Origin: a virus
Length of the DNA: 36,399 bases
Reading direction: 5' to 3' (one strand)
IMG/VR virus record: IMGVR_UViG_3300031513_000002
Part shown: positions 11,082 through 36,399 of the stretch, in pieces
How the letters are laid out: each line of letters opens with the position of its first letter
Numbering within the stretch: the stretch's first letter is position 1
Program-made: the position numbers and the translations under genes
Notes under the pieces: model-generated
The model's input: only the letters and a program-made list of their open reading frames with translations
Database searches by the model: none
Told to the model about the DNA's origin: nothing

Positions 11082-11162
11082 CCGACTTCTCCACTGGCTG
11101 CCACTGAACATTTCCACCGCGGCGGCTCCCCTCTCTTATTGGTCTATGCGTTGGTTGGAGCG

Positions 11163-11280: not shown

Positions 11281-11315
11281 TTGCAAATTATTTCAGCGGC
11301 ATATAGAATAGGGGC

Positions 11316-11540
11316 ATGCGAGTGCTCGAACCCACCTCTGAGCGATTGTTGACCGTGGCCGAGGCTGCGGCGCTTTTGGGGGTTACGCCAGGCCGCATCT
11401 GCCAAATGCTTTGGGCTGGCCAAATGGCAGGGCAAAAAGTTGGCGTCATCTGGCTGATCCCGGAACGGGAGGTCTTGCGCCACCGGGAGCGGCCGTCTAA
11501 GGTGGGCCGGCCGCGTTCTGGCGAGTTGCGGCGCAGCTAA
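11316..11540 (+). CDS. xis: Excisionase / AlpA-type helix-turn-helix DNA-binding protein
   Basis: LLTVAEAAALLGVTPGRICQMLWAGQMAGQKVGVIWLIPEREV matches the excisionase-family HTH pattern. It lies between the att fragment and the integrase. Confidence 0.6.
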   Translation: MRVLEPTSERLLTVAEAAALLGVTPGRICQMLWAGQMAGQKVGVIWLIPEREVLRHRERPSKVGRPRSGELRRS

Positions 11541-11573
11541 AGCAATCGATTTGGGCAAGAAGCGAGTTCCCTA

Positions 11574-11602
11574 TTGACGGATTTTATACGCCGCTATATA
11601 AT
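11574..11602 (+). promoter_or_regulatory. Near-consensus sigma70-type promoter TTGACG-N17-TATAAT
   Basis: Read directly. AT-rich island in a GC-rich intergenic region, 244 nt upstream of the integrase ATG. Confidence 0.55.
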
Positions 11603-11845
11603 GCGGCCGTTCAAAAGCGGAGCATTCTCTGAGCCTGCTGTAGCTCGCTTAGTGGGTGCTCCACCGGGCGTCCCAAGAGGGAAGCCAACTGACCAGAATT
11701 GCCGACGGAAAGGGGGCACCCGTGCTTTCGGATGGGTGGGTTGCTCTGCCTTATGCTACCAATAGAGGGATCGCCTGGTCCATCCGGCGGCCCTTCGGGA
11801 GCATGGCGGCCACCAGGGCTGCCAATGCTTCTGTGAGGTGCTGCC

Positions 11846-12760
11846 ATGAGACTTGTCGAGTTGGCTCAACGCTATGCTGCCGTCCAGTATCTCCAAAAAG
11901 CGTCACGCGATCTGTATCTGCGCGTGGCTCGCACCGCGGAGGCTATCTGCGGCGCCGACGTTTCTTGCATCACCGAAGAATCCCTGCATATTCTGGCGGG
12001 ACGATTAGTTGCTGCCAGGAAATCCGAAACTGCCAGCGATTATCTGCGGCGCCTGAGAACCTTGTTGACATTCGCTTGGCAGTTGCGGTTGATCGACGAT
12101 TTGCCGCGGGTGTGGCCGAAAATCAGAACGGCCGCTCCGCTGCCAGAGGCCTGGACTTCCGAGCAAGTTGCCAAGCTATTTCTGGTTGCCACCGAGCAAC
12201 CGGGCTGGCTTGGCCCGCACAAAGCAAGCTCCTGGTGGCGAGCCTTCTTGTCTGTGGCCTGGGAAACCGGCTTGCGTGTATCCCAGATGTTTCGCCTCCG
12301 CTGGGCCGACGTGGATTACGCACACCGATGCATCGTGATTCAGGCCTGCCCAGGAACGAAGAGTTATCGGCCGCAGATCAAGCCCTTGTCCGTCGAGTGT
12401 CTGGCAGCGCTGGAGCTGCTGGCCGAGCCGCCCAGGGAACTGATCTTCTGCTGGCCGGAGTGGCCGAAGTCCAGGCGGGATTTCTTCTCGGTCTGGCGCT
12501 ATCTGTGCTGGCTGGCCGGTATTCCGGCACCCCGCAGCCAAAGACAGCTCACGCATCGCTGGCGGCGGTCGAGCGTGACCGAAGCGGCCCGCAACAGTCT
12601 GGAAGCCGCACGCCGCCATGCTGGGCACACCAGCCCAGAGACAACACTGCGGCACTATGTCGATCCCCGTCTGCTCATCCAGCAGCCCCCGCCCGTTCCA
12701 CCGCTGCACGTGCTGCTCAAAGCGAATGGACAGGGAAATGCCAAACCGGCCGCATACTGA
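11846..12760 (+). CDS. int: Tyrosine recombinase / phage integrase
   Basis: Catalytic-domain motifs: ETGLRVSQMFRLRWADVD (Arg I), THRWRRS (H-x-x-R), HAGHTSPETTLRHY (His and the nucleophilic Tyr). Confidence 0.85.
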   Translation: MRLVELAQRYAAVQYLQKASRDLYLRVARTAEAICGADVSCITEESLHILAGRLVAARKSETASDYLRRLRTLLTFAWQLRLIDDLPRVWPKIRTAAPLPEAWTSEQVAKLFLVATEQPGWLGPHKASSWWRAFLSVAWETGLRVSQMFRLRWADVDYAHRCIVIQACPGTKSYRPQIKPLSVECLAALELLAEPPRELIFCWPEWPKSRRDFFSVWRYLCWLAGIPAPRSQRQLTHRWRRSSVTEAARNSLEAARRHAGHTSPETTLRHYVDPRLLIQQPPPVPPLHVLLKANGQGNAKPAAY

Positions 12761-12789
12761 GGCCGGTACTGCCCCTAGCGGACAGCCGT

Positions 12790-13245
12790 TCAACGGCGGC
12801 GAAGCCATTGCAGCCAGCGGCCAAGGCGGTCACGCCACGACAATGGCTGGCCCGTCTTGGCCAACTGGGCCAGGCGGAAACCCTGTCCCGTCAAAGTGAA
12901 CATGTTCGCCTGGACGTGGCGGATCAGGCCGCGCCAGCAAAGGCGCTCGAAGGCGTCCAGGTGAAGAGCCGCCTCGGCCGGGGCTTCGGTCGAATCCCAC
13001 TGACGGCCGCCGCAGTGGAGCACCAGCCCGCCGTTGACCTGAACCAGTTGGATCAGGCCGTCGTCGGCGACAGCGGCCAGGATTTCGCGTTCCTCCGGCG
13101 TGAAGCCGCCTTTGAGGATCGGAAAAATGGTGCGGGCAGTCATTACGGCTTTTTCGCAGAGCGTGATCATGGTAATAATTGTTTGCAGATAATCCATGGC
13201 ATGATCTCCTGGACAGGGGCCGCCGGCGGTGTCGGACATTGCCAC
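12790..13245 (-). CDS. Hypothetical protein, leftward, divergent from the XRE gene (candidate lysogeny or immunity function)
   Basis: One of only two leftward coding regions in the genome. An alternative start at 13197 has RBS ggaga. No recognisable motif. Confidence 0.45.
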   Translation of the reverse strand: MAMSDTAGGPCPGDHAMDYLQTIITMITLCEKAVMTARTIFPILKGGFTPEEREILAAVADDGLIQLVQVNGGLVLHCGGRQWDSTEAPAEAALHLDAFERLCWRGLIRHVQANMFTLTGQGFRLAQLAKTGQPLSWRDRLGRWLQWLRRR

Positions 13246-13480
13246 CGGCGGCCCCAGCTATTTTATTACCCACAACCCCGCCGACTGACCAGCCGGGGGG
13301 TTGCCCCAGTTGCCGGGCGGATGGTCCGCCCGGGGGCTTACTTACACAAGCGGGTGCTTGCGACCTACGTGCCGCGTCCCCCGGCTGGTTTTTTGAGCTA
13401 TTTTCTGACAGGGCAAGTCGTTACAATCCCCGCCCCGTTGTCGAAACTGTGGTTTTCAACACGCTATCCAGGGGCAACAC

Positions 13481-13723
13481 ATGACGCCGAAACGAAAAGA
13501 GCCAGACATGAGCACGTATTCAGGTCGCTTGGCCGCGCGGCTGCGGCAATTGCGAGAACGTCGAGGGCTGACTGTGGAAGATGTGGCGACCAAATTGGGC
13601 GTGGACAGGTTTCGCATCTACAAATGGGAATCGGGGGTCGCTTGTCCACCCTACGACTTGTTGCCTGCACTGAGCGCAGCCTACGGGTTAAAAACGGTTC
13701 GCGCGTTGCTGCCCGAACATTGA
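13481..13723 (+). CDS. XRE-family (Cro/CI-type) HTH transcriptional regulator
   Basis: LRQLRERRGLTVEDVATKLGVDRFRIYKWESG is a classical XRE HTH. Confidence 0.8.
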   Translation: MTPKRKEPDMSTYSGRLAARLRQLRERRGLTVEDVATKLGVDRFRIYKWESGVACPPYDLLPALSAAYGLKTVRALLPEH

Positions 13724-13740
13724 TTGGAAAACTTTTCCAA
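13724..13740. promoter_or_regulatory. Perfect 17-nt palindrome TTGGAAAA-C-TTTTCCAA (operator-like); a third half-site TTTTCCAA lies at 13757-13764
   Basis: Read directly. It abuts the XRE stop codon and overlaps the promoter below. Confidence 0.5.
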
Positions 13741-13747
13741 CAGACTA

Positions 13748-13775
13748 TTGACTTATTTTTCCAATATGGTAGACT
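13748..13775 (+). promoter_or_regulatory. Sigma70-like promoter TTGACT-N16-TAGACT for the early rightward operon
   Basis: Read directly in an AT-rich island. An operator half-site sits in the spacer. Confidence 0.4.
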
Positions 13776-13816
13776 ACTGCTAGCCTGTGGGCTGGCAGTG
13801 CGAAGCGAACAATTTG

Positions 13817-13872
13817 AACCCCGACGGGCACACCGGACACTGCCAGCCCCGGCCCCCGTCGGGGTTTTCGTT
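13817..13872 (+). terminator. Terminator or attenuator-like hairpin aaccccgacggg-N26-cccgtcggggtt followed by ttcgttt
   Basis: 12-bp perfect inverted repeat plus a T-rich tail, between the promoter at 13748 and the first early gene at 13889. Confidence 0.4.
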
Positions 13873-13888
13873 TGAAGGGGGCACGCCA

Positions 13889-22706: not shown

Positions 22707-23291
22707 ATGAAGGACGGCCGACAGGACGACATGCAGATACGGAAGACTGATGAGTCGAAGACATCCGTCGGGGCAGGCGCAGCCTTCTGTGTGAAATTCC
22801 ATGTTCCTGGCCTTCCGGTCGCGAAAGGCAATCTCAAGACCGTGCCGATCCGTCGGGCGGATGGCACGCCGACGACACGCATGATAGAGTCGCAGCACGT
22901 GACCGGGTGGGTAGCCACCGTGCGCACTGCTGCGGCGGCGGCATACGGCGACCGACCGCCGCTAGAGGGGCCGGTATTCGTGGCGGCAGTGTTTCGCTTC
23001 CCACGCCCAAAGTCGCATTTTCGCGGAAACAAGCCAGGGCCTGGCCGGTTGCGTCTCGACGCCCCCAAGTATGTCATCACTCGCCCAGATCGTGATAAAC
23101 TGGAACGTGCCATCATGGACGCCATGCAAGGCGTGATTTTCCGCGACGATGCGCAGGTTGCCGCCGGTATGTCGGCAAAAGTCTATGCGAATGATGGTGA
23201 GGTCACCGGTGTGAAAATCATGGTGATAGACGCTGAGCAGTTTCTGCTTGGCTGCCTCGATTTTCCGGACGCCGGCTCGTCATCTGGTTAG
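22707..23291 (+). CDS. rusA: RusA-family Holliday junction resolvase
   Basis: RBS ggagg. VKFHVPGLPVAKGN ... FRFPRPKSH ... PDRDKLERAIMDAMQGVIFRDDAQV is the RusA signature. Confidence 0.75.
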   Translation: MKDGRQDDMQIRKTDESKTSVGAGAAFCVKFHVPGLPVAKGNLKTVPIRRADGTPTTRMIESQHVTGWVATVRTAAAAAYGDRPPLEGPVFVAAVFRFPRPKSHFRGNKPGPGRLRLDAPKYVITRPDRDKLERAIMDAMQGVIFRDDAQVAAGMSAKVYANDGEVTGVKIMVIDAEQFLLGCLDFPDAGSSSG

Positions 23292-23344
23292 GTGGTACCA
23301 GCCACCAGAGTGTTTACGGATGTTTACACTTAAAGAAAGGCGAT

Positions 23345-23623
23345 ATGGACTCAAATTGCACGGACGACATTCGCAGGCGTCTGCAGAAACTCTTCTACTT
23401 CACCAGTGAAGAAGTCGACCGGCTTTTCGACCAGGTGCGGGTTTATCGTCTCCCGCGGGTGCCCCCGTTTCCGGCAGCCGGAAAGTCACCAACCAGCCGC
23501 AAGGGATTGATTCGGCTGGTCTGGATTCCCGCTCCGGAGCCGCTGATTGCCGTTCGGGCCGCTGATCTGCCCGAACTTTCTGTGTTGCTGGCCCGGCTGA
23601 TTGCTGGCAATTCCGAGCCGTAA
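23345..23623 (+). CDS. Hypothetical protein
   Basis: 92-aa ORF with RBS aaagaaagg. Confidence 0.35.
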   Translation: MDSNCTDDIRRRLQKLFYFTSEEVDRLFDQVRVYRLPRVPPFPAAGKSPTSRKGLIRLVWIPAPEPLIAVRAADLPELSVLLARLIAGNSEP

Positions 23624-23663
23624 CTGTCCCCTTTTCAGCATAGGCGTTTGCTACCATCTCGGT

Positions 23664-23909
23664 ATGCAGGTGCTGTTGCTGCGCATCAAACATTTCCGGC
23701 GGCGTGGCTGGTCTGCCCGGCAGATCGCACAGCAGATCGGCTGCTCCAAGTCGCAGGTTTGCCGGCTGCTCCGGCGGCGTGTCTTGCTGCCGCTGCTGCC
23801 CTCCGGGCCGCGTCGGCGATGCCCGCACTGCGGTGCGGTCGTGTTGTGGCCATGCCGCCGCTGCCAGCTTCAGAACGAATTGTCTGCAATTTCCCAACAC
23901 TTGGGATGA
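23664..23909 (+). CDS. HTH plus zinc-ribbon DNA-binding protein (candidate late regulator)
   Basis: RGWSARQIAQQIGCSKSQVCRLLRRR (resolvase/IS-type HTH), followed by CPHCG...CRRC. Confidence 0.5.
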   Translation: MQVLLLRIKHFRRRGWSARQIAQQIGCSKSQVCRLLRRRVLLPLLPSGPRRRCPHCGAVVLWPCRRCQLQNELSAISQHLG

Positions 23910-23954
23910 AGGCGTGCCCGTTATCTGTCAACCCTTATCCGTAAAGGAAGCGAC

Positions 23955-24260
23955 ATGGACCTGATTCGCCCACTGGTGGAAGTGTTGTTGGCAGCTTGGC
24001 CGCTGCCGCGAACGTGGCTGGTCGTGGATGACGTCGAGCAATGGCTCAATCGCCTGCCGAAACCGATGGCACTGCTAATCGTGGCCATCGCTCGGCGGCT
24101 AGAAGCGGGCGAACCGCTACCGATGCGGGCCGACATCGAGCAAGTGGTTCGAGAGGAGCTAGCCGCGGCTGGCCGGGACACCGAGCTTGATCCGACGGTC
24201 ATCGTGCTGATCGTCGAACTGATCCTGCAAGTGATCCAATGGTGGAGGAACAGAAAGTGA
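23955..24260 (+). CDS. Small protein with a hydrophobic C-terminal helix (holin or membrane candidate)
   Basis: TVIVLIVELILQVIQWW near the C-terminus. RBS aaaggaag. Confidence 0.35.
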   Translation: MDLIRPLVEVLLAAWPLPRTWLVVDDVEQWLNRLPKPMALLIVAIARRLEAGEPLPMRADIEQVVREELAAAGRDTELDPTVIVLIVELILQVIQWWRNRK

Positions 24261-25036
24261 ACTCGATTTTGCTGGCTCTTTTCTGTCTGTTTCTTCCGAA
24301 TCCCGGTCTGGAAATCGACGGGCCAGAGACGCTGGCCGTCGCCGAGTACGGCGACTACGCCATTCGCGGGCTGAGCCTTGAGCAGGCGAAGACGGCCTAC
24401 GTCGATGTGTGGCCCGAAGCCGGCACTACGATTCGGCCAGTACTCACTTGGGCCGGCGAACCGCTGCTGCTATTTCGAGCTCGAGCGCCCGGGCAATATC
24501 GCTTGCTGGTCGTAGTTCCCGTGTCTGCTGATCGTCTGGTGGTCGCAAAGAAGGTGATCCAGGTTGGCACACCGCAGCCCGAACCGAAGCCTGATCCTGG
24601 GCCGCAGCCTGAACCCCAGCCGAAGCCTTACCGTGAACTGTGGCTGCTGGTTGTAGAGGAACGGCTCGATCGCACACCGCAGACCGCGGCGATTGTCTTG
24701 GCGCCGGAATTGCGACGACTACTGAGTGACCGCGTGCGGCTGCTCGATAAGGACGTGCTCGACAAGGCGGATAACGTGCCCAACTGGGCCAGGAAGTGGC
24801 TTGACTTGGCCAAAGGGAAACCACTTCCCTATCTCTTCCTTTTCACGGAACACGGGGAAGTGCTGTGGGAAGGCCCATTGCCGAAAACGCTGGCCGAAGT
24901 GAGAGCCTTGATTGAGCAGCGGCTGCCGAAAGGCACAACGCCGCCACCATCCGTTACACCGTCCACTGCGCCGGCAACGACTATTTGGCGGGGCCTGCCG
25001 CAACGCATGTGCACACCCTATGGCTGCGGCCCTTGA
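24239..25036 (+). CDS. Secreted or membrane-anchored protein with a Pro-rich linker (alternative GTG start at 24257)
   Basis: N-terminal hydrophobic segment SILLALFCLFLPNPG. Linker PQPEPKPDPGPQPEPQPKP. Confidence 0.4.
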   Translation: MVEEQKVNSILLALFCLFLPNPGLEIDGPETLAVAEYGDYAIRGLSLEQAKTAYVDVWPEAGTTIRPVLTWAGEPLLLFRARAPGQYRLLVVVPVSADRLVVAKKVIQVGTPQPEPKPDPGPQPEPQPKPYRELWLLVVEERLDRTPQTAAIVLAPELRRLLSDRVRLLDKDVLDKADNVPNWARKWLDLAKGKPLPYLFLFTEHGEVLWEGPLPKTLAEVRALIEQRLPKGTTPPPSVTPSTAPATTIWRGLPQRMCTPYGCGP

Positions 25037-25047
25037 AAGGAGAGCAA

Positions 25048-25869
25048 ATGTCTGACCTGATTGTTGCGCAATGGAAGGAATGTCTGGCACGGTATGTTGA
25101 GAGGCCAGGCAGCGCTGCGCCGTCGCTTGAACAGGAACTGACCTATCTTGAGGCGCAATTGCTCGCCAATCCGCCGCCCGGCTGTGGCACTGGGCTGATT
25201 CAGGAGTGCCGAGAGCCGCCGCCGCGGTCATTGTCGGTCGAACAAGCAGGCATCAAGGTCGTGCCTATCGACCAGTGGCCGGAGCGGATCGCGGAGTTGA
25301 ATGCGGCAAAGGCGTGGCCGAACAGTCACGTGTGGACGGTCTTCAATCAAGGCAACGTCGGTTCCTGTGCTAGCGAAGCAATTTGCGGGGCCATGCAAGC
25401 CTTGCGAGCCCAAGAGGGCCAGCAGAAGGTCACATTCAATCCCTATGGGCTCTACGGCCGAGTGAATGGCGGCCGCGATGCTGGTTCCTCGCTTCAAGAC
25501 AACCTGAGCTTCGTCCAGCGGTACGGGTGCTTTCCCGAGTCTATTTGGCCGCGCTCCAAAGGCTGGCAGGCTCAGCCAAGTGCGGAGGCTTATGAGGCGG
25601 CCAAGGCCTACCGCTTGCAAGAGGTTGTGCAGGTCCGCAGCCGGGAAGAGTTCGGTTCAGCTTTGCTCGCTGGCCTGCCGGTGTACTTCGGGTACCCGGG
25701 CCATGCAATCTTCGCGGTGGAACTGATTGACCAGAAACGGTTTTGGTACGTCAACTCCTGGGGAACCAATTGGGGCCAGCAAGGCCGCGGCACGCTGTCC
25801 TTTTCCCAGGTCGCCTGGTACTACGGGGCCTACGCGATTCTCACGCCGCGATGGGGTGATTCCAACTAA
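25048..25869 (+). CDS. Papain-family (C1) cysteine peptidase; candidate lysis enzyme
   Basis: RBS aaaggagag. FNQGNVGSCASEA (Gln oxyanion plus catalytic Cys), YPGHAIFAV (His), YVNSWGTNWGQQGRG (Asn-Ser-Trp-Gly signature). No N-terminal signal peptide is evident. Confidence 0.8.
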   Translation: MSDLIVAQWKECLARYVERPGSAAPSLEQELTYLEAQLLANPPPGCGTGLIQECREPPPRSLSVEQAGIKVVPIDQWPERIAELNAAKAWPNSHVWTVFNQGNVGSCASEAICGAMQALRAQEGQQKVTFNPYGLYGRVNGGRDAGSSLQDNLSFVQRYGCFPESIWPRSKGWQAQPSAEAYEAAKAYRLQEVVQVRSREEFGSALLAGLPVYFGYPGHAIFAVELIDQKRFWYVNSWGTNWGQQGRGTLSFSQVAWYYGAYAILTPRWGDSN

Positions 25870-25885
25870 GTCTTGGAGGTGTCAA

Positions 25886-26086
25886 ATGCATCCATTTCAT
25901 CAAGCTGTCCGCGACGCGCGTGTACTGTTTGAGGCACTCGAAAAACAACTCGATGACGCCGACTATAAGCCCACAGCGGAAATACTGCTTGCAAACGAAG
26001 TAGTGCTTCCCGTGGTGGGTGCCATCGGCAAGTTTCTGGCCGAACTAGCTAAAATCAACGTCCATCGGTCGCAATCCAGCGGTTGA
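25886..26086 (+). CDS. Small protein in the lysis cassette (amphipathic or hydrophobic helix)
   Basis: RBS ggaggtg. LLANEVVLPVVGAIGKFLAELA. Confidence 0.35.
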   Translation: MHPFHQAVRDARVLFEALEKQLDDADYKPTAEILLANEVVLPVVGAIGKFLAELAKINVHRSQSSG

Positions 26087-26239
26087 GCAACCATGAGCAC
26101 ACCACAATGGGGTGAACCGCACGGAAACAACGTCGCTGCCACCGTTTCGAGGCCAACCAAGGATGCCACGTATTGGCGAGTGGGCGCGGCTGGCCACCGA
26201 GCTGTGTTCCCTGATAATCGCATACGGAAAGGCTGATTC

Positions 26240-26530
26240 ATGGATGAAATTTTGCAACTATGGTCGCCTGCGATCCAAGGCGGGTTTGCCGTTTTCGCGC
26301 TGGCCTTGCTTGGCGTCAACGTATGGCTCATTAAACAGCTTCTGCGGGTGCTGGCCGACACCAACCAGGTGATCGCGGGCAACACCAGGGCGATCGAATC
26401 GGTTGCCGGCGTCTCCCACGATAGCAAGCAATTGATCGAGCAACTCCGTAACGAATTGCTGAAGCGGCCCTGTTTAATGGAGGCAAGTAACAAGCGTCAT
26501 CAAGACCCAATGGACGCAAAGACTCCATGA
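26240..26530 (+). CDS. Holin-like single-pass membrane protein
   Basis: GGFAVFALALLGVNVWLI transmembrane segment followed by a charged helical tail. Confidence 0.4.
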   Translation: MDEILQLWSPAIQGGFAVFALALLGVNVWLIKQLLRVLADTNQVIAGNTRAIESVAGVSHDSKQLIEQLRNELLKRPCLMEASNKRHQDPMDAKTP

Positions 26531-26546
26531 CAACGGAGGCCATGCC

Positions 26547-26978
26547 ATGCTGCCTACCCTGAAGTTGTTGGCTGAGGCAGTAGTCGGCGAACTGAATCAA
26601 GGCGAATGGTCGCTGGATTTCGTGGCCCGGCACGCCTACCGGCTGCCGTTGGCTTGTGAACAGGTCAACAGCCTTACCGTTACAGTGACGCCGCACCGGC
26701 TGACCATAGAGTCCCAGCCTCACGGTCTGGATAAGAGCATCTATCAGATCGATTTGTTGATTCAACACAGATTGGAGAGCGAGTCGGCCGAGGAGATCGA
26801 GCCGCTGTTGGGGCTCGCGGAAGAACTGGCCCGCTATTTCCGGCTGCGGCGGCCGACCGCCATGCCCGCGACGGTCTGCGTGAAGGTGGTAAACGAGCCG
26901 GTATACACACTGGAACAGCTAGAGGGGGCGCTTTGCTTTACCAGCGTTCTGGCTTTGACGTTCCAGACGATCCAGTAG
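26547..26978 (+). CDS. Hypothetical virion-associated protein (neck or completion-like)
   Basis: 143-aa ORF immediately upstream of the terminase genes. No motif. Confidence 0.3.
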   Translation: MLPTLKLLAEAVVGELNQGEWSLDFVARHAYRLPLACEQVNSLTVTVTPHRLTIESQPHGLDKSIYQIDLLIQHRLESESAEEIEPLLGLAEELARYFRLRRPTAMPATVCVKVVNEPVYTLEQLEGALCFTSVLALTFQTIQ

Positions 26979-27000
26979 GCGACGCCGGTAGCAAGCGGCA

Positions 27001-27387
27001 ATGGTCACCGATCGACGACTATTGACGGCCCTGGAGGCCAACGGCGGGCTGGTGACGCTGACGGCCCGACAGCTCGGAATCACTCCGCAGGCGATCCATC
27101 GCCGGGCGGCCCGCAAGCCCAAGATTCGCCAGGCCATCCTGGAGGCCCGCGAAGCGATGCTCGATGAGGCCGAGCAGCAGTTGCGGGCGGCAATCGGGCG
27201 GGGCGAACCGTGGGCTGTGTGCTTTGCACTCAAGACGATAGGGCGGTCGCGTGGCTACATTGAGCGGAGCGAGATGGTGCACACCACTGATGCGGCGATG
27301 TCGCAACTGACTGATGAGGAACTTGAAGCCGCAATCCGGCGTGTCGCTGCCAGCACTGCTGCCGGTAGCAACGGAACTAGCCCGTAG
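27001..27387 (+). CDS. terS: Terminase small subunit (HTH type)
   Basis: LLTALEANGGLVTLTARQLGITPQAIHRR HTH, then a helical region. Directly precedes and overlaps the large subunit. Confidence 0.6.
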   Translation: MVTDRRLLTALEANGGLVTLTARQLGITPQAIHRRAARKPKIRQAILEAREAMLDEAEQQLRAAIGRGEPWAVCFALKTIGRSRGYIERSEMVHTTDAAMSQLTDEELEAAIRRVAASTAAGSNGTSP

Positions 27388-28804
27388 ACGCTTCGGTGCG
27401 TTTGTGCACCTGCTAGGCCAGTACAACGAGAACTGGCACCACCGGCTGTTGATCGACCGGCTCCAGCAACTGTCCGAAGGACGCCTCCAGCGGCTGATCG
27501 TGTCGATGCCCCCGCAGCACGGCAAGTCGGAACTGGTCTGCCGCCGCTGGCCGGCCTGGCTGCTGGGCCGTCGGCCGACGCTGAAACTGATCCTTTGCAC
27601 GCACACGGCCACACTGGCCGAGGCCCACAGTCGGCAGGTGCAGCGGCTACTCGGTTCGCCACTGTACCGTCTGGTCTTTCCGGAGGTGCAGTTGCCCGCC
27701 GGACGCGGACAGGCGGGCCGCTACAAGCGGACCGACGAGTTCTGGGAATTGCCGCAGGGCGGGTATCTGCGGGCGGCAGGGGTGGGCGGGGCGATCACCG
27801 GGCTGCGGTTCGACATCGGCATCATCGACGATCCGGTCAAAAGCTGGCAGGAAGCGGAAAGCCCGGCGATGCGTGAGGCCGTCTGGCAGTGGTACACCCA
27901 CGATTTCCTGACCCGCCGCAGCCGCGACGCCCGCATCGTGGTGGTGATGACCCGCTGGCACCGCGACGACCTGGTGGGCCGCCTGCTCCGCCAGCAGGCC
28001 GACCAGTGGGAAGTGGTCCAGCTTCCGGCACTGCTCGAATCGGCCAACAAGCATCCTGAAGACCCACGCTCTGAAGGCGAAGCCCTGTGGCCCGATTTCC
28101 TCAGTGCCGAACAACTCCAGCAGCAGCGTCGCAACGACCCGCGTGCCTTTGCCGCCCTGTACCAGCAGGAGCCCAGCGAGGCCGGCGGCGTCGAATGGCC
28201 CGACAGCTACTTCGGCGACTGGTTGTGGCTGGACCAGTCCCGCTGGCCGCCGCAGGTGGATCGCTGGGTGATGGCGATCGATCCCAGCCGGGGCCGCACC
28301 GACGCCCCGGGCGACTATGCGGCCATCGTGCTGCTGGGCCACAGCCACGACAAGGCCCTGATGTACGTAGAGGCCGATTTGGCGGTGCGTACACCGGAGG
28401 CCACCATCCGCCGGGCGCTCGAATTGTGGGACCAATATCGGCCCGTGTGGATTGCCATCGAGTCCAACCAGTTCCACGGGCTGCTTGAGCGGGACTTCCA
28501 GCGGGAGGCGATCAGCCGGCTGGGAATGCGACTACCGATCTGGCCGATCCTGAACACCGAGCCGAAGCTGCTGCGGATTCGGCGGATCGGCCCGCTGCTG
28601 GCCAACCGCGAGCTGCGGTTCCGGCAGCAATCGCCGGGCTGCCAATTGCTCGTCGATCAGTTGCGGGACTTTCCGCTGGCGGCCCACGACGACGGCCCGG
28701 ATGCCTTGGAGATGGCACTGCGAATCCTGACGGCCACCGCCGTGCTGACGCCGGAGCGGGCGGCGGTGCGTTTTGCCCCTCCGGAAAGCGTTCCACTGCA
28801 CTGA
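27314..28804 (+). CDS. terL: Terminase large subunit (the true start may lie downstream of 27314)
   Basis: Walker A-like MPPQHGKSE, Walker B IGIIDDP, MTRWHRDDL, nuclease-domain VMAIDPSRG...DYAAIVLLG and AHDDGPDALEMA. Confidence 0.85.
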   Translation: MRNLKPQSGVSLPALLPVATELARRRFGAFVHLLGQYNENWHHRLLIDRLQQLSEGRLQRLIVSMPPQHGKSELVCRRWPAWLLGRRPTLKLILCTHTATLAEAHSRQVQRLLGSPLYRLVFPEVQLPAGRGQAGRYKRTDEFWELPQGGYLRAAGVGGAITGLRFDIGIIDDPVKSWQEAESPAMREAVWQWYTHDFLTRRSRDARIVVVMTRWHRDDLVGRLLRQQADQWEVVQLPALLESANKHPEDPRSEGEALWPDFLSAEQLQQQRRNDPRAFAALYQQEPSEAGGVEWPDSYFGDWLWLDQSRWPPQVDRWVMAIDPSRGRTDAPGDYAAIVLLGHSHDKALMYVEADLAVRTPEATIRRALELWDQYRPVWIAIESNQFHGLLERDFQREAISRLGMRLPIWPILNTEPKLLRIRRIGPLLANRELRFRQQSPGCQLLVDQLRDFPLAAHDDGPDALEMALRILTATAVLTPERAAVRFAPPESVPLH

Positions 28805-28815
28805 AAGGACGAGCG

Positions 28816-29631
28816 ATGAAAATCAGCGACATGTTTCGGCGGGCCGACGACGCCTTTCGTCGAGGAGTGATCGAGGTCTTGGCCCAGGAATTGATGCGGG
28901 AAGTCCAGCGTGGCGGGGCCAAGCCAGGGCATCTTGCTATGCGGGTCCTTCGCAGCCTGGGCGGCGAGTTCTGGCCGGTGCGGCGACAGGCACCCCGCGA
29001 ACTGGTTGACCTTCTGGGGCAACTGTGGGACTTGCTGGCGTCCTACAGCCAGCCGGAACGACAACCGCTGGGTAAGGCCGCCGAAATCGAGGAACAACTG
29101 CGTAGGCAGCGTGGTGCCAAGCTGCCCGAGATCGGCCAGGTGCAAGTGCCGCTGACCCAAGGATTCCAGCAACTCCCGCCCGATCACCCCCTGGTCACTG
29201 GCGACATGGTGCCAGTCGATAGCTCCAACGTCCACTCGGTCGGTTACGACCTGGAGCATCACCTGCTGTATGTGCGGTACCTCGATCCTGCCGGTCGGGC
29301 AGGCCCGCTGTACGGCTACCACGATGTCCGCCCGGAAGAGTTCCTGGATTTGCTCGATGCCCCATCCAAAGGCACTTGGGTGTGGGACAACCTGCGGGAA
29401 CGCGGCACGGTGGCCGGCTACCGCAAGCCCTACTTCCTGGCCGGCGTCACCCGCGGTTACGTCCCCCGCCATGCCGTGTTGGCCCGCGTCGGCGGCCAGT
29501 TGGCTGAGGTCTTCCGGCCCCGGACTTCTTTTGTGGGCGGACGGTGGCTGGAGTCGCGTAAACCGCTGCGGGTGGTGCGGGTTCTACAGCCGGTCAAACC
29601 GCCGCGGACAGGCATCGCACAGGCCGGCTGA
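28816..29631 (+). CDS. KTSC domain-containing protein
   Basis: VDSSNVHSVGYDLEHHLLYVRYLDPAGRAGPLYGYHDVRPEEFLDLLDAPSKGTWV matches the KTSC pattern. Confidence 0.6.
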   Translation: MKISDMFRRADDAFRRGVIEVLAQELMREVQRGGAKPGHLAMRVLRSLGGEFWPVRRQAPRELVDLLGQLWDLLASYSQPERQPLGKAAEIEEQLRRQRGAKLPEIGQVQVPLTQGFQQLPPDHPLVTGDMVPVDSSNVHSVGYDLEHHLLYVRYLDPAGRAGPLYGYHDVRPEEFLDLLDAPSKGTWVWDNLRERGTVAGYRKPYFLAGVTRGYVPRHAVLARVGGQLAEVFRPRTSFVGGRWLESRKPLRVVRVLQPVKPPRTGIAQAG

Positions 29632-29684
29632 GCCGCTCAAGTGTCCCCTGTTTTGCAAGGGCGGTTGTTAGAATCGCACGTGAT

Positions 29685-30980
29685 ATGGTGGCATTCGCAC
29701 AACTGTCCAAAGTGACTGAATTTCCCGAAGACCGCTTCCTCAACGTCGAGGGTGTGCCTGTCTTCGTGGCTCACAGCACGCAATTGTCGGATGGGCGAGA
29801 GGTCAGTTTCGGACGCGAAGAGCTGGCGGCGATTTGCGAAAACTGCAATCGCCGAATCCGGCAAACCGGGGACTACGCAGTCGTCACGCTTGGTCACACA
29901 CCCCGGCCTGGAGAAGACCAGCCGATGCCGGAGGTAGTGGGGTTCGCCGGCCCGTTCCGCTTGGGCGAGTTCGCAGGCAAGCCAGCGATCCTGGCCGACT
30001 TCCACATCTTCAAAGAACACGAGGATGTCTTGAAACGGTATCCGCGCCGCAGCCCAGAGTTCCGGCTGGCCGAAGACCTGCGGCAGGTACATCTCGATCC
30101 GATTGCCCTGCTGGGAGCAGAGCCGCCGCGGTTGGATATGGGGCTGACGCTGCTTTACAGCGGCACCGAAGACGGGCTGCCGGTAGAGCGGTATGCCTTT
30201 GCGATGCCCAGCGGCAGCAACACGTTTGTTCCGGAGGTGATTTCCAAACGGTCCAAGAAGGAGGAATACGCGATGAATGAGGAACAACTAAAAGCCATCA
30301 TCGAGGCGCTGGAGAAACTGGATTGGGTCCAGTGGATCAAGCGCAAGATGGCCGAGGAGGCGGCTACCGGGCAGCCGCCGCCGGAACCCGCCAACGAGCA
30401 ATTGGCGGGGCAGCCTTCCGACAAGATCGACCCGGAGAAGGCCAAACAAATCCTGGAGGACGGCGAAGTGCACGGGAAACCACTTACCGAAGACCAGCGG
30501 AAGATGTTGGGGGCGGCGGCCAGTCGGGAACGTGACGCCGATACGGCGATGCGGGAACGTTACCGCCAACTCGAACAGCAGCTTGAACGGCAGAAGACCG
30601 AGGTGGAGGCCCTCCGGAAGCTGCTGGAAGAGGAACGGGCCGATCGTGTCAACGCCGAACGCTATTCGCAGTTGATGGCCCTGCGGCAGGTCTACGCCTT
30701 TGATCTGGACAAAGAGGCCGACCGCTGTCGCTACAGCCGGATGAACGACGAGCAGTTCCGCGATCACCTCCAGTTGATCCGCGAGAATTATCGACGCATC
30801 CCGGTCGGGGAGCGATTGCCGCCCCTGGGACAGGCGGTCGATCCGGACAGTCAGCGTGAGCGGTACTCGGAAGACGTTCGCCGCAAGGCCCTCCAGATCG
30901 CCCTGCGGCGACGCGAGGCCGGCGAAGCGGTCGATTTCGAGTCGCTCCTGGAACAGGTCCAAAAAGGACAGGTCAATTGA
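29685..30980 (+). CDS. Scaffolding / prohead-protease-like protein
   Basis: Positioned before the decoration-like and capsid genes. The C-terminal half is a long charged coiled coil (RYRQLEQQLERQKTEVEALRKLLEEE). Confidence 0.4.
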   Translation: MVAFAQLSKVTEFPEDRFLNVEGVPVFVAHSTQLSDGREVSFGREELAAICENCNRRIRQTGDYAVVTLGHTPRPGEDQPMPEVVGFAGPFRLGEFAGKPAILADFHIFKEHEDVLKRYPRRSPEFRLAEDLRQVHLDPIALLGAEPPRLDMGLTLLYSGTEDGLPVERYAFAMPSGSNTFVPEVISKRSKKEEYAMNEEQLKAIIEALEKLDWVQWIKRKMAEEAATGQPPPEPANEQLAGQPSDKIDPEKAKQILEDGEVHGKPLTEDQRKMLGAAASRERDADTAMRERYRQLEQQLERQKTEVEALRKLLEEERADRVNAERYSQLMALRQVYAFDLDKEADRCRYSRMNDEQFRDHLQLIRENYRRIPVGERLPPLGQAVDPDSQRERYSEDVRRKALQIALRRREAGEAVDFESLLEQVQKGQVN

Positions 30981-30995
30981 AGGAGGTTGATACGC

Positions 30996-31394
30996 ATGGC
31001 GATTCTTAACTTCGTAGCCGGCGGCACGATTCATCCGTGCCGATTTGTGAAACTCACCGGGGCCAACCAGATTGGGCAGGCCACCGGAGCCACGGACGTG
31101 CCGATTGGTGTCTCCTACGAGGGCACACGCTCTTTTCCGTCGCAGGAAAGCACTCCTCCGGCGGCAACCACAAACGATCCGCTTGCCGTCTACTCTGTAG
31201 GCGAACAGTGTTTAGTGGAAGCAGGCGGCACTATCACAGTCGGCGACTTGTTGGAGTCTGACAGCAGTGGGAAGGCTGTGGCGATTGGGACTACTGGTAC
31301 CCGGCACTACGCGGCTTTGGCCCTGGAAAGTGGCGTCGCCGGCGAGCGCATCCGTTGCCTTGTGCTCCCGCCTGTCAAGGTAAAGCTGAGCTAA
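30996..31394 (+). CDS. DUF2190-like small head protein (decoration-like)
   Basis: RBS aggagg. Size and pattern (ITVGDLLESDSSGKAVA ... ALESGVAGERIRCLV) fit, as does its position before the capsid gene. Confidence 0.45.
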   Translation: MAILNFVAGGTIHPCRFVKLTGANQIGQATGATDVPIGVSYEGTRSFPSQESTPPAATTNDPLAVYSVGEQCLVEAGGTITVGDLLESDSSGKAVAIGTTGTRHYAALALESGVAGERIRCLVLPPVKVKLS

Positions 31395-31421
31395 TCTGAC
31401 GCAAATAAGGAGAGATGAACG

Positions 31422-32459
31422 ATGCCAGTTGCACTTCCTGGAATGTCCAACACTTATGTCCCGGTCGCTCTGGCCGGCGACAAACTCCTGGTGGACTTCG
31501 CCCGCGACCCGAAACGCTTCAAGGTTTCCCGCTATACACAAGTGATTCCGGTGGAGAGGGACACGGGCTACTACCTGTACATCTCGCCGGAGGAAGCCGG
31601 GCGGATCGTTAACTCGGATGTCAGACGCTTCGTCTGGTACGACGGCGGCGACGCACCACGCCAGCACGCGGGCACGCAAGAGTTCGAGTTCCGCACCTAC
31701 CGCACCACCCGCTACGCGTACGAGTTCACGCTCGGCTACAAGGCAGTGGAGCAGGCCACCTGGGACATCCTGGCCCGCCATGCAGCGGCGAAGGCCCAAT
31801 TGGCGATGACCGTCCGCACGCAACGGGTAGCCGACGTGCTGTTCGACAGCACGAACTATCCGAGCGGGAACGTCATCAACGTCAACAGCGTTTATGGCGG
31901 CGGCTGGAACACCAGCGATCTGACCAGCAAGCGAATCCTGAGGTCGCTGAACGACGCCGCCGACAAAATCCTCGACGGCACCCTGGGCATGGTCACCAAA
32001 GACGACCTGGTACTGGTCATGGGCACCGGCGTGGCCAAGGCCATCGCCCAGGCCACCGAGATTCTGGAACTGCTGAAGTTCCAGGCCGGTTGGGACTGGG
32101 TGCAAGGGGCCACCAAGCGGACCAACGTCAGCTACGGCGTCCCCGAGCAACTCTACGGTTTCGATGTCGTGGTCGATGAAACCCGCAAGGTCACCACAGC
32201 GAAAAATGCCAGCAGCACCACCATCGCCAGCGTGCTTCCGGCTGACAAGGCAGTCTTGCTGGCCCGGCCCGGCGGGATGGAAGGCACGCCAGGCGTTATC
32301 AACTTCTCGGCCTGTTGTGTGTTTGCCAGGGAAGAGATGACCGTCGAGCAGAAAGACGACCCGGACAATCGCCGCGTCAACGGTCGGGTGGTGGAAGATT
32401 TCGACGTGCGACTGGTGGCCCCGGTGGCTGCGGTGCTGTTTACCAACGTGGTGGTCTGA
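31422..32459 (+). CDS. Major capsid protein
   Basis: RBS aaggagag. 345 aa. Called from synteny (scaffold, small head protein, then this gene). No family assigned. Confidence 0.55.
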   Translation: MPVALPGMSNTYVPVALAGDKLLVDFARDPKRFKVSRYTQVIPVERDTGYYLYISPEEAGRIVNSDVRRFVWYDGGDAPRQHAGTQEFEFRTYRTTRYAYEFTLGYKAVEQATWDILARHAAAKAQLAMTVRTQRVADVLFDSTNYPSGNVINVNSVYGGGWNTSDLTSKRILRSLNDAADKILDGTLGMVTKDDLVLVMGTGVAKAIAQATEILELLKFQAGWDWVQGATKRTNVSYGVPEQLYGFDVVVDETRKVTTAKNASSTTIASVLPADKAVLLARPGGMEGTPGVINFSACCVFAREEMTVEQKDDPDNRRVNGRVVEDFDVRLVAPVAAVLFTNVVV

Positions 32460-32959
32460 TGTGGGCGACAGTAGCCGACCTGATCGCACGCTGGGATCGG
32501 CGGCTCCTGGCCGATCTGGCCGGCGATGACGGCCAGCCAGAATCTGACCTGGAAAACAACGCCCGTATCCTGGCGGCATTGAAAGGGGCCTGCGGAGAAC
32601 TGCGGGCCGCAGTGCTCAAGGGCCGCCGCTATCGGCCCGAAGACCTGGAAAATCTGTCGGAAGTCGATGCCGCTTACCTAAAAGACCTCGTGTGCGGCTT
32701 AGCCGTCTTGCGGCTGGCGGCCTGCCGAGTAACGACCTTGGGCACCGAAGTCTGGGAGGCCCTGCGAAAGGACCTGCGAGAACGCCTGGCTGAACTGGAA
32801 CGCGGGGAAAGAATCTTCGCCACCGATCAGGCACAAGAGGCTGGATTGCCCAAAGCGGACGGCCCACGCTGGGCAGATTACACAGCCTTGAACCTGCTAG
32901 TAGACCGCTGCCGAGGTTACTATCCGCCGCGCAGTCAAGATTTGCCGCTTGGACGTTAG
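32459..32959 (+). CDS. DUF1320 / Mu gp36-like head-tail adaptor
   Basis: TGATG overlap with the capsid stop. MWATVADLIARWDRRLLADLAGDD matches the characteristic N-terminus. Confidence 0.5.
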   Translation: MWATVADLIARWDRRLLADLAGDDGQPESDLENNARILAALKGACGELRAAVLKGRRYRPEDLENLSEVDAAYLKDLVCGLAVLRLAACRVTTLGTEVWEALRKDLRERLAELERGERIFATDQAQEAGLPKADGPRWADYTALNLLVDRCRGYYPPRSQDLPLGR

Positions 32960-32968
32960 GAGCCACCC

Positions 32969-33493
32969 ATGCCGATTGCAGTACAAGTGAGCGGCTTGGC
33001 CACGATCAAAGTCGGCCAAGAGGGCTGCACCGACCAGAACCTCAGTACGCTTGGCTACACCGTCAACGGCGTGCGGATTCGCACTGAGAGCTATTTCGAC
33101 GAGGTTCACGGTGACGAATACGGCGGCGATGCCGGCCCGCCGATCGAATTGATCTACCTGGGTGAACGGGCTGTAGTCACCTGCGAGCTTTCCAAATGGG
33201 ATGCCACCGTGGCCGATAGCATCGCAGCCCGACTACATGGGAAGACGCCGGGTAGAACCAAGGAAGAAGCTGGTGTTTCCTGGCCGGGCACGCCGGTGTT
33301 TGCTTCGACCAAGGCCTACCGCCTGGTGATTTCCGTCGGCGGCCAGAACCAGAAAGGCTTTGACTTCGCCCGGGCCGTGCCCCGCGAGCCGATCGAGATC
33401 AACAAAGGCACACGCCACAGTGTGCTGATGATTGTCTTCGATTGCTACCCGAATGCCTATGGCGTCGTCTTCAGTCCCTACCCGGCGAGCTGA
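32969..33493 (+). CDS. Tail tube-like protein
   Basis: RBS aggag. LGYTVNGVRIRTE ... AVVTCEL ... resembles tube-protein beta-sandwich patterns. Weak call. Confidence 0.35.
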   Translation: MPIAVQVSGLATIKVGQEGCTDQNLSTLGYTVNGVRIRTESYFDEVHGDEYGGDAGPPIELIYLGERAVVTCELSKWDATVADSIAARLHGKTPGRTKEEAGVSWPGTPVFASTKAYRLVISVGGQNQKGFDFARAVPREPIEINKGTRHSVLMIVFDCYPNAYGVVFSPYPAS

Positions 33494-34938
33494 TGGACAG
33501 CATCTATTTCGTCGATCGCAACGGCGTGCATGAGATCGCCGGGATGCCGCCCGGCAACGGCCAGGCCATGGTACCGCACCTGGTCACCTTCATGGGCGTC
33601 ACTGCCGGCGCGGGCCGCGTCTATCGCCCTTCGGATGAAGCACTCAAGGAATCCAGGGAGAATGCCCGCTACATGCGGGCCGACGCAGCGGTGATGGAAT
33701 GCGTCGAGCTGCGGCAGCGGGCTGTGGCCCTGCTGGACTGGCGGATCGAGGTAGAAGACCGGTCGCCGCAATACCAACAGACCCGCGCTCTGCTTACAAA
33801 AATCTGCCGCCGCATTCCCCGCTTCACCCAGTACCGCGAAACGCTTCTTCAGGCCATCTGGTTTGGGCGGTATGCTGTCGAGAACGTCTTTGCCTGGGAC
33901 TGGATCGACGGCCAGAAGCTAGTCAGCGTTTGCGGCTGGTGCCCAGTACACGGCGACAAACTAGTCTGGAAGCTGGACGCCCGCACCGGGCGGTTCCAGG
34001 AAGAGCCGGTCGGCATTCGCGTCTCTTCAGTCGGCATCACCACCCCGCACGTGCAGGCCTGGTTTGAGGAAAATCGCCAGTACATCGAGCCGACCGATTG
34101 GGGCATGGCATACTTTCCGCCCCCGGAGAAACGCGACCTGCTGGTGATCCACCGCCACCAGATCGAAGACGGTGAATGGGAGGAGCCGCGAAACGCCGGC
34201 CGTATCTTTGGGGTGGGCATCCGCTCGAAAATCTACTGGGTCTGGTACCAGAAACAGCAAGCCCTCCGCTGGCTGATGGAGTTCCTGGAACGGTCGGCCT
34301 TCGGCATCGAACTGTGGTACTACCCAGCGGGCAACCTTGAGGCCCGCGAAGAAACCTTTCGGTCTGCCACCCAGCGAGTAGGCACGGGCAAGAACGTGCT
34401 GCTGGTGCCCCGCCCGCCCGGCGGCGAAGGGATGCTCTATGGGGTCGAGCGGATCGAGCCGAGTATGTCTGGGGCCCAGGTGCTCAAGGAAATCCTCACT
34501 GAATATTTCGGCCACCAGATCAAGCGGTACATTCTGGGACAGACGCTGACGACCGAGGCCCACGCGACTGGGCTGGGTTCCAATCTGGCCAGCATCCACC
34601 TGGACACCTTCTTGCAGATCGTCCGCTATGATGCCGGCAACCTTCAGGAAACGCTCACCGAACAACTGCTGTGGCGGCTGATCCACTGGAATTGGCCCGG
34701 ACTGGACCATCGACTGTTCCGCTTCTGCATCGAGACGGACCGGCCCGATGTGGGCCAGCGGCTGGAGGCGTTGCAGCGGGCCTTCCAGATGGGCTTGAAG
34801 ATTCGCACCGCCGACCTGCGGGAACTGCTGGGCATCGACGGCCCGGCCGAGGGCGAAGAATACGTCCAAGACCCGAACTTCCGCCAACCGGCCCCCGGCC
34901 TGCTCAGTGTGGCGGACACTGCCCGGGTGCTCGGCTGA
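33493..34938 (+). CDS. Portal protein (DUF935 / Mu gp29-like)
   Basis: ARYMRADAAVMECVELRQRAVALLDWRIE and a size of 481 aa. The start overlaps the upstream stop (TGATG). Confidence 0.6.
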   Translation: MDSIYFVDRNGVHEIAGMPPGNGQAMVPHLVTFMGVTAGAGRVYRPSDEALKESRENARYMRADAAVMECVELRQRAVALLDWRIEVEDRSPQYQQTRALLTKICRRIPRFTQYRETLLQAIWFGRYAVENVFAWDWIDGQKLVSVCGWCPVHGDKLVWKLDARTGRFQEEPVGIRVSSVGITTPHVQAWFEENRQYIEPTDWGMAYFPPPEKRDLLVIHRHQIEDGEWEEPRNAGRIFGVGIRSKIYWVWYQKQQALRWLMEFLERSAFGIELWYYPAGNLEAREETFRSATQRVGTGKNVLLVPRPPGGEGMLYGVERIEPSMSGAQVLKEILTEYFGHQIKRYILGQTLTTEAHATGLGSNLASIHLDTFLQIVRYDAGNLQETLTEQLLWRLIHWNWPGLDHRLFRFCIETDRPDVGQRLEALQRAFQMGLKIRTADLRELLGIDGPAEGEEYVQDPNFRQPAPGLLSVADTARVLG

Positions 34939-36340: not shown

Positions 36341-36399
36341 ACAGGAAGGTTTTCTCTATGCTCGGACGGTTATGGCGTCGCTGGCGGCTCCGCCGCAGC
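36341..36399. repeat. Terminal direct repeat, copy 2
   Basis: Exact 59-nt match to 1-59. It contains the RBS and first codons of the ORF that starts at 18. Confidence 0.95.

Follow-up and report, generated by a model that had tools for sequence, protein, structure and literature searches.

To our knowledge, the peptidase domains of all characterised endolysins belong to a few families, for example CHAP, NlpC/P60, M15 and M23. Lysins that work with a second polypeptide include streptococcal PlyC, a two-component endolysin made of PlyCA and PlyCB, and the Gp1-LysA system of mycobacteriophage Ms6, in which the helper gene lies directly upstream and its product acts on the N-terminus of the lysin. 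Here we analyse a stretch of 36,399 nucleotides from the virus record IMGVR_UViG_3300031513_000002 of IMG/VR (the window), in which two adjacent genes, 24239-25036 and 25048-25869, code for a predicted exported protein (the partner) and for a papain-type cysteine peptidase of family C1A. We propose, as a reading about evenly poised between right and wrong, that the two products form a two-part lysis enzyme and serve as the main lysin of this phage. As in PlyC and Ms6, a catalytic polypeptide would be joined by a separately encoded adjacent helper, but there is no sequence or fold relationship to either system, and the helper in the window itself bears an export signal together with immunoglobulin (Ig)-like and thioredoxin-like domains. 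The two genes are:

24239-25036, plus strand: component (b), exported partner, 265 aa (homologue alignment, partner hidden Markov model (HMM), AlphaFold2 model)
25048-25869, plus strand: component (c), xylellain-type C1A cysteine peptidase, 273 aa (motifs, profile, AlphaFold2 model)

CHAP (C51) and NlpC/P60 (C40) enzymes, which are characterised peptidoglycan peptidases or amidases of endolysins, share with the peptidase the papain-like Cys-His core of clan CA and the same proposed place in phage biology; they belong to other families, whereas the window peptidase has the full two-lobe papain fold with the oxyanion Gln and the Asn. Its best match in both sequence and structure is xylellain from Xylella fastidiosa (PDB 3OIS), the type of the short bacterial C1A peptidases (Foldseek template modelling score about 0.6). 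Common to both are the Q/C/H/N arrangement, a short N-terminal extension in place of the long eukaryotic propeptide, and a GSC(A/T) motif that lacks the Trp found after the catalytic Cys of papain. With only 18-19% identity to xylellain in the structural alignment, the phage clade stands as a separate subfamily, most members of which fall below the threshold of Pfam PF00112; the tie to an exported partner is stated for the phage clade alone.

Xylellain-type C1A genes have been acquired by Myoviridae and Siphoviridae (PMC10380794). A tblastn search of annotated phage genomes with a distant family member led us to two records. In Alicyclobacillus phage MMB025, the 753-aa 'endolysin' ORF0095 (a label that is an HHpred prediction in its preprint) combines Peptidase_C1 (27.9 bits) with Big_1 (Ig-like), Rv2525c_GlyHyd-like (GH25-like) and PG_binding_1 domains, and its gene is followed by one for a 174-aa protein with an N-terminal transmembrane helix. 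In Thermoanaerobacterium phage THSA-485A, the 277-aa Peptidase_C1 protein Tsac_2838 (47.5 bits) is encoded directly 3' of a GH25+PG_binding_1 endolysin, and the next gene codes for a 168-aa protein with an N-terminal transmembrane helix. Both C1 domains are matched by our family HMM at about 1e-16, and C1 domains appear to recur in phage wall-degrading contexts. The view, put forward in a preliminary description made from the window sequence, that known cysteine-peptidase endolysins belong to other clan CA families is thus overstated, with one C1 domain inside the MMB025 endolysin and another beside the GH25 endolysin of THSA-485A. In MMB025 an Ig-like domain adjoins the C1 domain; in the window the helper is a separate exported protein. 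Both of these are Gram-positive phages with C1 beside a glycosidase and PG_binding_1, whereas none of these companions was found in the window, whose host is apparently a diderm bearing lipopolysaccharide (LPS). Our literature search turned up no test of a C1 endolysin, nothing on how phages lyse planctomycetes, and no description of the exported Ig/thioredoxin-like partner, of its fusions or the accompanying small proteins, of a complete diderm-type phage genome without a canonical lysin, or of how large this Pfam-invisible subfamily is. C1 genes in phages are already known; the partner module and the fusions appear to be undescribed.

The peptidase and its family

The peptidase open reading frame (ORF) begins with an ATG at 25048, 6 nt downstream of a Shine-Dalgarno sequence (AAGGAG), and ends with the stop codon at 25867-25869. 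Since its closest homologues (98% and 83% identity) are likewise 273 aa long, the alternative TTG start at 24985 is unnecessary. The full C1 signature claimed for this 273-aa protein in the preliminary description is borne out within these bounds: QGNVGSC (Q101 to C107), GHA (218-220) and NSWGTNWGQQG (236-246) are all present, with the catalytic codons at 25348-25350 (Q101), 25366-25368 (C107), 25702-25704 (H219) and 25753-25755 (N236). The oxyanion-hole Gln, the Cys, the His and the Asn, plus the Trp of the NSW(G) motif, occur in the order of C1A enzymes. Q101, G105, S106, C107, H219, N236, S237 and W238 are all invariant in a 40-sequence family alignment, so the motifs are not chance matches.

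A check against the Pfam Peptidase_C1 HMM, which had been recommended, gave a divided answer. PF00112 itself remained below its gathering score on the peptidase (E=0.38, 11.2 bits versus 20.7) and covered the NSWG region only, so that homology had to come from a profile of the family and a predicted structure; the only PHROGs match was to 'peptidase' (phrog_16701, 8e-6). The result with our own profile was firm. While phmmer with the single sequence against PDB gave xylellain 3OIS at 1e-9 and cathepsin K at 6e-3, the 40-member profile reached xylellain at 8.5e-26 and also matched dozens of C1A enzymes at 1e-10 to 1e-5 along the full length of the catalytic domain, among them Der f 1 and cathepsin K (about 1e-10), cathepsins L, B and H and papain-like enzymes. 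Structure predictions covered two proteins, the peptidase and its partner. The alignment-based AlphaFold2 model of the peptidase (predicted local distance difference test score, pLDDT, 94.6; predicted template modelling score 0.92) has the two-lobe papain fold and gave 253 Foldseek matches in PDB at E<=1e-3, led by xylellain (1.8e-12) and then by pro-cathepsins K and L and pro-papain; C1A enzymes account for 50 of 50 among the PDB matches listed. No Pfam CHAP (PF05257) or NlpC_P60 (PF00877) match was found on the peptidase, and CHAP proteins were among the fold neighbours of the model only at E>0.2, in the viral library BFVD, where the neighbours include several 'Peptidase C1/C1A' proteins from uncultured Caudovirales as well as C1-like phage proteins named 'Peptidoglycan binding-like' and 'N acetylmuramidase'. 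Judged by sequence and predicted structure, 25048-25869 is a catalytically intact xylellain-type C1A (papain-fold) cysteine peptidase, in keeping with the earlier assignment to the true papain-type enzymes.

A hydropathy scan found no hydrophobic segment or signal peptide at the N-terminus of the peptidase, as had been noted before. Residues 1-95 form a pro-region-like extension, two helices followed by an extended PPPG..GL segment with an invariant Gly49, and the longest Foldseek alignments of the model are those with proenzymes and xylellain. The pro-region for which a search had been advised may have its counterpart in this 95-residue N-terminal extension, which is consistent with an autoinhibitory pro-segment.

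The family is sizeable. A word-indexed search yielded 83 metagenomic homologues of the peptidase, and the family profile run against 1.84 billion representatives (50% identity clusters) returned 350 clusters at E<=1e-30. As 79 of the 83 have no precomputed Pfam hit, most of the family is at present invisible to endolysin mining. The readable contigs that carry the peptidase are phage-like, or are short contigs binned to bacterial metagenome-assembled genomes (MAGs); DNA and protein searches of INPHARED with the window found no close phage, the only match being one of 27% identity in a 595-kb uncultured phage. The catalytic centre has been invaded repeatedly by inteins, which sit exactly at the catalytic Cys in five homologues (P0108, P0118, P0138, P0151 and P0169; ..GVGS|C...HN|CASE..), such that the +1 extein residue is the peptidase nucleophile, matching C107 of the window (25366-25368). 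According to Pfam, P0108 and P0151 contain Intein_splicing/Hint domains, and P0138 contains a LAGLIDADG domain. Insertion of inteins at this position would fit a conserved and important phage gene.

The exported partner and the flanking small proteins

The partner gene, which the preliminary description overlooked, is an obligate neighbour of the peptidase gene. In all 11 unfused loci examined (the window and loci L001, L002, L003, L005, L007, L008, L010, L011, L012 and L013) a partner ORF of 243-323 aa lies directly 5' of the peptidase, often with an overlap of a few bases, and the pair is found once more in contig JGI 3300042731; the partner HMM confirms the upstream ORFs at E 1e-18 to 1e-93. 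The protein is predicted to start with a signal/anchor helix, to continue with an Ig-like beta-sandwich (residues ~25-109), a PxPxP linker (110-133) and an alpha/beta domain (134-228) that is thioredoxin-like but lacks CxxC, and to end in a C-terminal tail containing Cys. The partner has 19 homologues; in the family alignment the alpha/beta domain shows conserved VVEE, DKD, LPYLFL and EGPLP motifs, and the short C-terminal tail carries two or three Cys in some members. Foldseek with the AlphaFold2 model of the partner (pLDDT 80.5) returned generic Ig and thioredoxin folds only and gave no functional clue. A weak NCBIfam TonB match was discarded, as it is explained by the composition of the Pro-rich linker, and a suspected co-variation between the long N-terminal hairpin of the peptidase and the partner's Cys tail was dropped after a by-eye check failed for L005.

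Partner and peptidase also occur as one polypeptide. At least six of the 150 best representatives (P0208, P0221, P0225, P0229, P0238 and P0241) are fusions, detected by the partner HMM at E 1e-10 to 1e-25, in the order signal peptide, Ig-like domain, Pro-rich linker, thioredoxin-like domain, pro-segment and peptidase; P0229 is without the Ig-like domain and the Pro-rich linker. The catalytic residues read as intact in P0208, which passes PF00112 at 25.3 bits, and the peptidase motifs seem intact in the other fusions. The phage context of a fusion is provided by L015, a phage contig in which the fused P0238 comes after helicase and primase genes. In two unfused homologues, P0023 and P0024, the N-terminal helices are replaced by a signal/anchor sequence of their own. 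The adjacency in all unfused loci and the fusions together support a functional link between partner and peptidase, and the fusions further suggest that the two proteins interact physically. The signal-peptide fusions and the signals of P0023 and P0024 indicate that, at least in some family members, the site of action of the peptidase is extracytoplasmic.

The pair is surrounded by four small ORFs:

23601-23909, plus strand: 102-aa protein with a helix-turn-helix (HTH) domain (Pfam HTH_23, 4.8e-7) and a Cys4 zinc-ribbon-like motif, a candidate late-gene regulator whose membership in the module is uncertain
23955-24260, plus strand: component (a), 101-aa protein ending in an amphipathic/hydrophobic helix (...DPTVIVLIVELILQVIQWWRNRK) (Kyte-Doolittle (KD) hydropathy scan, HMM)
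25886-26086, plus strand: 66-aa ORF, weakly hydrophobic at its centre, with GGAGG as ribosome-binding site (hydropathy scan)
26240-26530, plus strand: component (e), 96-aa protein with one N-terminal transmembrane helix and then a predicted coiled-coil-like helix (KD scan)

The last three had been described as small hydrophobic proteins, which holds clearly for component (e) (KD 1.89 over residues 17-35, a transmembrane helix), holds for the C-terminal helix of component (a) (hydrophobic segment at residues 76-94), and holds only weakly for 25886-26086, for which no homologue was recognised in the other loci. Neither Pfam nor PHROGs nor NCBIfam gave a match for component (a). Seven such ORFs, that of the window among them, were used to build an HMM, whose matches therefore include its own seeds; it finds component (a) just 5' of the partner in the window, L001, L002, L003, L007 and L008 and 1 kb 5' in L005; tails like that of component (a) are also present in L013, L015 and L016. 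We regard it as a candidate membrane-active, holin-like protein. Component (e), a candidate holin or i-spanin-like protein, has no family match. Clear homologues of it are encoded 3' of the peptidase in L002 and L003, and ORFs of similar architecture are found in L001, in L008 and behind the C1 genes of THSA-485A and MMB025. In L007 two proteins with two transmembrane helices each, resembling class-II holins, are located around the partner-peptidase pair. An HTH + CxxC...CxxC ORF comparable to 23601-23909 precedes the module in L008 (5277-5558). In L015, an 89-aa ORF 3' of the fused gene (10875-11144) combines a classical lipobox (LLAC) with a further hydrophobic segment, a layout that recalls a unimolecular spanin.

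In the window the module comes after RusA and the HTH regulator and before the genes for the small (TerS, 27001-27387) and large (TerL, 27314-28804) terminase subunits, so the placement just upstream of the packaging genes stated in the preliminary description is correct. The order of an HTH regulator, small membrane proteins with an enzyme, and terminase genes is the lambdoid one, which agrees with an endolysin position. In L002 and L003 the module is found among structural genes, near the capsid and portal genes, and components (a) and (e) accompany the pair even in such differing neighbourhoods. It is from this architecture and position that the label 'lysis cassette' would derive. A promoter/terminator scan of 23000-27500 found no more sites than in shuffled controls.

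Proposed role in lysis and alternative readings

We infer a lytic role, an order of events, zymogen behaviour and a class of substrates as follows. The partner would be exported early by the Sec pathway and wait in the periplasm or envelope, while the peptidase builds up in the cytoplasm as a self-inhibited proenzyme. At the time of lysis the small membrane proteins would permeabilise the inner membrane, and the peptidase would reach the partner, which may target it, activate it or both. The peptidase would then cut peptide bonds that hold the envelope together, either in peptidoglycan stem peptides or cross-links or in structural or tethering envelope proteins, and the cell would lyse.

This proposal leans on the content of the genome as a whole. 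Bases 1-59 are identical to 36341-36399, and this exact 59-bp direct terminal repeat indicates that the window closes into a circle and represents a complete genome of 36,340 bp. Every plausible ORF was compared with Pfam and PHROGs, the module and the largest ORFs without assignment also with NCBIfam, and the unannotated proteins, concatenated, with PDB by phmmer; within the limited sensitivity of this search, no lysozyme, SLT transglycosylase, amidase, CHAP, NlpC/P60, M15 or M23 domain was found in the genome, in line with the earlier remark that no muralytic motif was seen elsewhere. Nor is there such a domain in the precomputed Pfam annotation up to 10 kb on either side of the gene in the related contigs that were looked up. 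The sole possibly relevant domain near any family member is PF00144, the beta-lactamase family, which includes DD-peptidases, in a 390-aa protein (2304-3476) of contig JGI 3300042731, 2 kb 5' of the module.

Several points weigh against the two-part lysin. About half of the ORFs in the window have no annotation, which leaves room for a cryptic muralytic fold, and the C1 domains of THSA-485A and MMB025 are found together with a glycosidase and may be an accessory activity. The flanking small proteins match no known holin or spanin family in Pfam, PHROGs or NCBIfam, scanning the whole window for lipoboxes revealed no candidate lipoprotein o-spanin in the cassette, and the transmembrane helices were called by a crude hydropathy scan. 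Export is predicted for the partner, but the window peptidase has no signal peptide, and how and when they meet is something we infer. The host assignment, finally, comes from the MAG binning of three short contigs.

Part of this evidence would suit an accessory lysis factor, one that removes a protein layer or tether (links between outer membrane and peptidoglycan, surface or surface-layer (S-layer) proteins) in a spanin- or disruptin-like job while the peptidoglycan is cut by an unrecognised phage enzyme or by host autolysins. We hold this to be a genuine but clearly lesser possibility. C1 is an add-on in the annotated cases, beside the GH25 endolysin in THSA-485A and fused to a GH25-like domain in MMB025; no spanin pair was detected in the window, which leaves the spanin function vacant, and many of the window ORFs are unannotated. 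The complete genome, however, offered no candidate muralytic enzyme in four libraries, none is present in the precomputed Pfam annotation of the related contigs either, and these phages, different in other respects, have no conserved enzyme-bearing element in common except the module. A step further from lysis, the product could be an envelope protease of a temperate phage that trims surface or periplasmic proteins for lysogenic conversion, superinfection exclusion or receptor destruction, which we consider unlikely. The phage is probably temperate (tyrosine-recombinase-, Xis- and XRE-like ORFs) and carries LPS-core modification genes (GT9, HldE-like), the lambdoid slot between late regulator and terminase also hosts morons, the fused forms may simply be secreted proteins with signal peptides, and a decayed copy persists in a bacterial chromosome (L013). 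Such a role is hard to reconcile with the unfused majority form, which has no export signal and would reach the envelope only once the membrane is breached; small membrane-active proteins also accompany the module, which in L002 and L003 is placed among late structural genes, and the active-site inteins suggest a core, highly conserved phage function.

A cytoplasmic protease for virion-protein processing (head maturation) or for degradation of host or defence proteins, the first of which the preliminary description had offered as an alternative, appears highly improbable. It would explain why the window peptidase has no signal peptide and why the gene is near the capsid and portal genes in L002 and L003, and C1 peptidases are established as general endopeptidases; it does not account for an obligate partner that is exported, for fusions that carry signal peptides or for the signal sequences of P0023 and P0024. 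The usual slot for a protease or scaffold before the capsid gene is, moreover, taken by a 431-aa ORF (29685-30980), a weak argument against this reading since that ORF is unannotated. Assignment as a prohead protease of the HK97/U9/U35/S49 families was rejected, as there is no family match and the gene lies 5' of TerS, outside the head-gene block.

For the two-part lysin itself, a bolder version can be put forward, in which the pair is the sole lytic enzyme of a phage clade of Planctomycetota or neighbouring phyla and cuts envelope proteins and not peptidoglycan. Here an exported Ig/thioredoxin-like subunit would dock and activate a true papain-type protease, which would replace the muralytic endolysin. 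We regard this version as rather unlikely; the evidence for a proteinaceous envelope or S-layer is limited to relatives binned to MAGs of Planctomycetota and Omnitrophota. Cwp84 of Clostridioides difficile, a C1A protease that matures the S-layer precursor, is a bacterial C1A peptidase acting on a proteinaceous envelope layer and thereby a precedent for a protein substrate; unlike the window enzyme, it is a secreted housekeeping enzyme of the host with cell-wall-binding repeats and is neither phage-encoded nor lytic.

If the module is a lysin, a papain-type C1A enzyme would join the peptidase families of endolysins, and the two-subunit form, with a targeting or activating subunit exported ahead of the catalytic one, would be unusual. 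It would also give a first handle on phage lysis of poorly studied hosts such as Planctomycetota and Omnitrophota. If the substrate is protein, the module would be an exception to the general requirement for a muralytic enzyme in the lysis of bacteria by phages, and a sole protein-cutting lysin would be a lysis principle undescribed for tailed phages of bacteria.

Host and other genes of the window

Three MAG contigs with the module are labelled Planctomycetaceae, Planctomycetota and Candidatus Omnitrophota. The G+C content is 0.60-0.67 in all loci except L005/L006, one contig pair with 0.43-0.44, and no tRNA genes were found. Two sugar-related genes are annotated by Pfam and PHROGs, with a 304-aa ORF without assigned function between them (7890-11081):

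7890-8813: GT9 heptosyltransferase
9609-11081: bifunctional HldE-like protein, PfkB kinase and cytidylyltransferase

These LPS inner-core genes suggest a diderm, LPS-bearing host, and through them the phage may alter the LPS of the host surface. The host is probably a diderm with LPS and possibly a member of Planctomycetota or a neighbouring phylum.

A bacterial contig of 1.06 Mb carries component (a), partner and peptidase at its end (L013, 9733-11502), beside ordinary bacterial genes such as ilvD fragments and PAS/GAF regulators. The peptidase of this locus is frameshifted and its active-site motif is altered (QNSCC), which would point either to a decaying prophage remnant or to long-read sequencing errors.

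The region 11300-13720 of the window resembles a lysogeny module. A 739-aa ORF over part of it (11656-13875) was rejected as spurious, its codon-position GC pattern being wrong, and the region contains:

11307-11537: Xis-like HTH ORF
11846-12760: candidate XerC-like tyrosine recombinase, 304 aa (weak match to PDB 4A8E, E=0.004)
12793-13257, minus strand: open frame of 155 residues
13409-13720: XRE-like HTH ORF

With recombinase-, Xis- and XRE-like ORFs together in this region, the phage is probably temperate.

Further annotations from Pfam and PHROGs include a tape-measure-like protein, a tail protein bearing a carbohydrate-binding module, an MT-A70 methylase, an exonuclease, an SMC-like ATPase, a replication initiator and RusA, and, for head and packaging, TerS, TerL, the major capsid protein and a Mu-type portal. 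A 599-aa protein of the tail region (ORF 5665-7464) has poly-Ser and (SSSE)n tracts (6874-7312), then a Cys-rich C-terminus (CQAYNCRWRW...CPYPCNCPYP), and no family match. Downstream of TerL the head genes follow:

28816-29631: KTSC-domain protein
29685-30980: unannotated 431-aa ORF with a coiled-coil C-terminus, possibly a protease or scaffold
31422-32459: major capsid protein
33442-34938: Mu-type portal (Portal_Mu, 9e-47)

A gene for a cement-like protein is located between the 431-aa ORF and the major capsid gene. The order of the head genes (27001-34938) is unusual in that the Mu-type portal comes after the major capsid protein.

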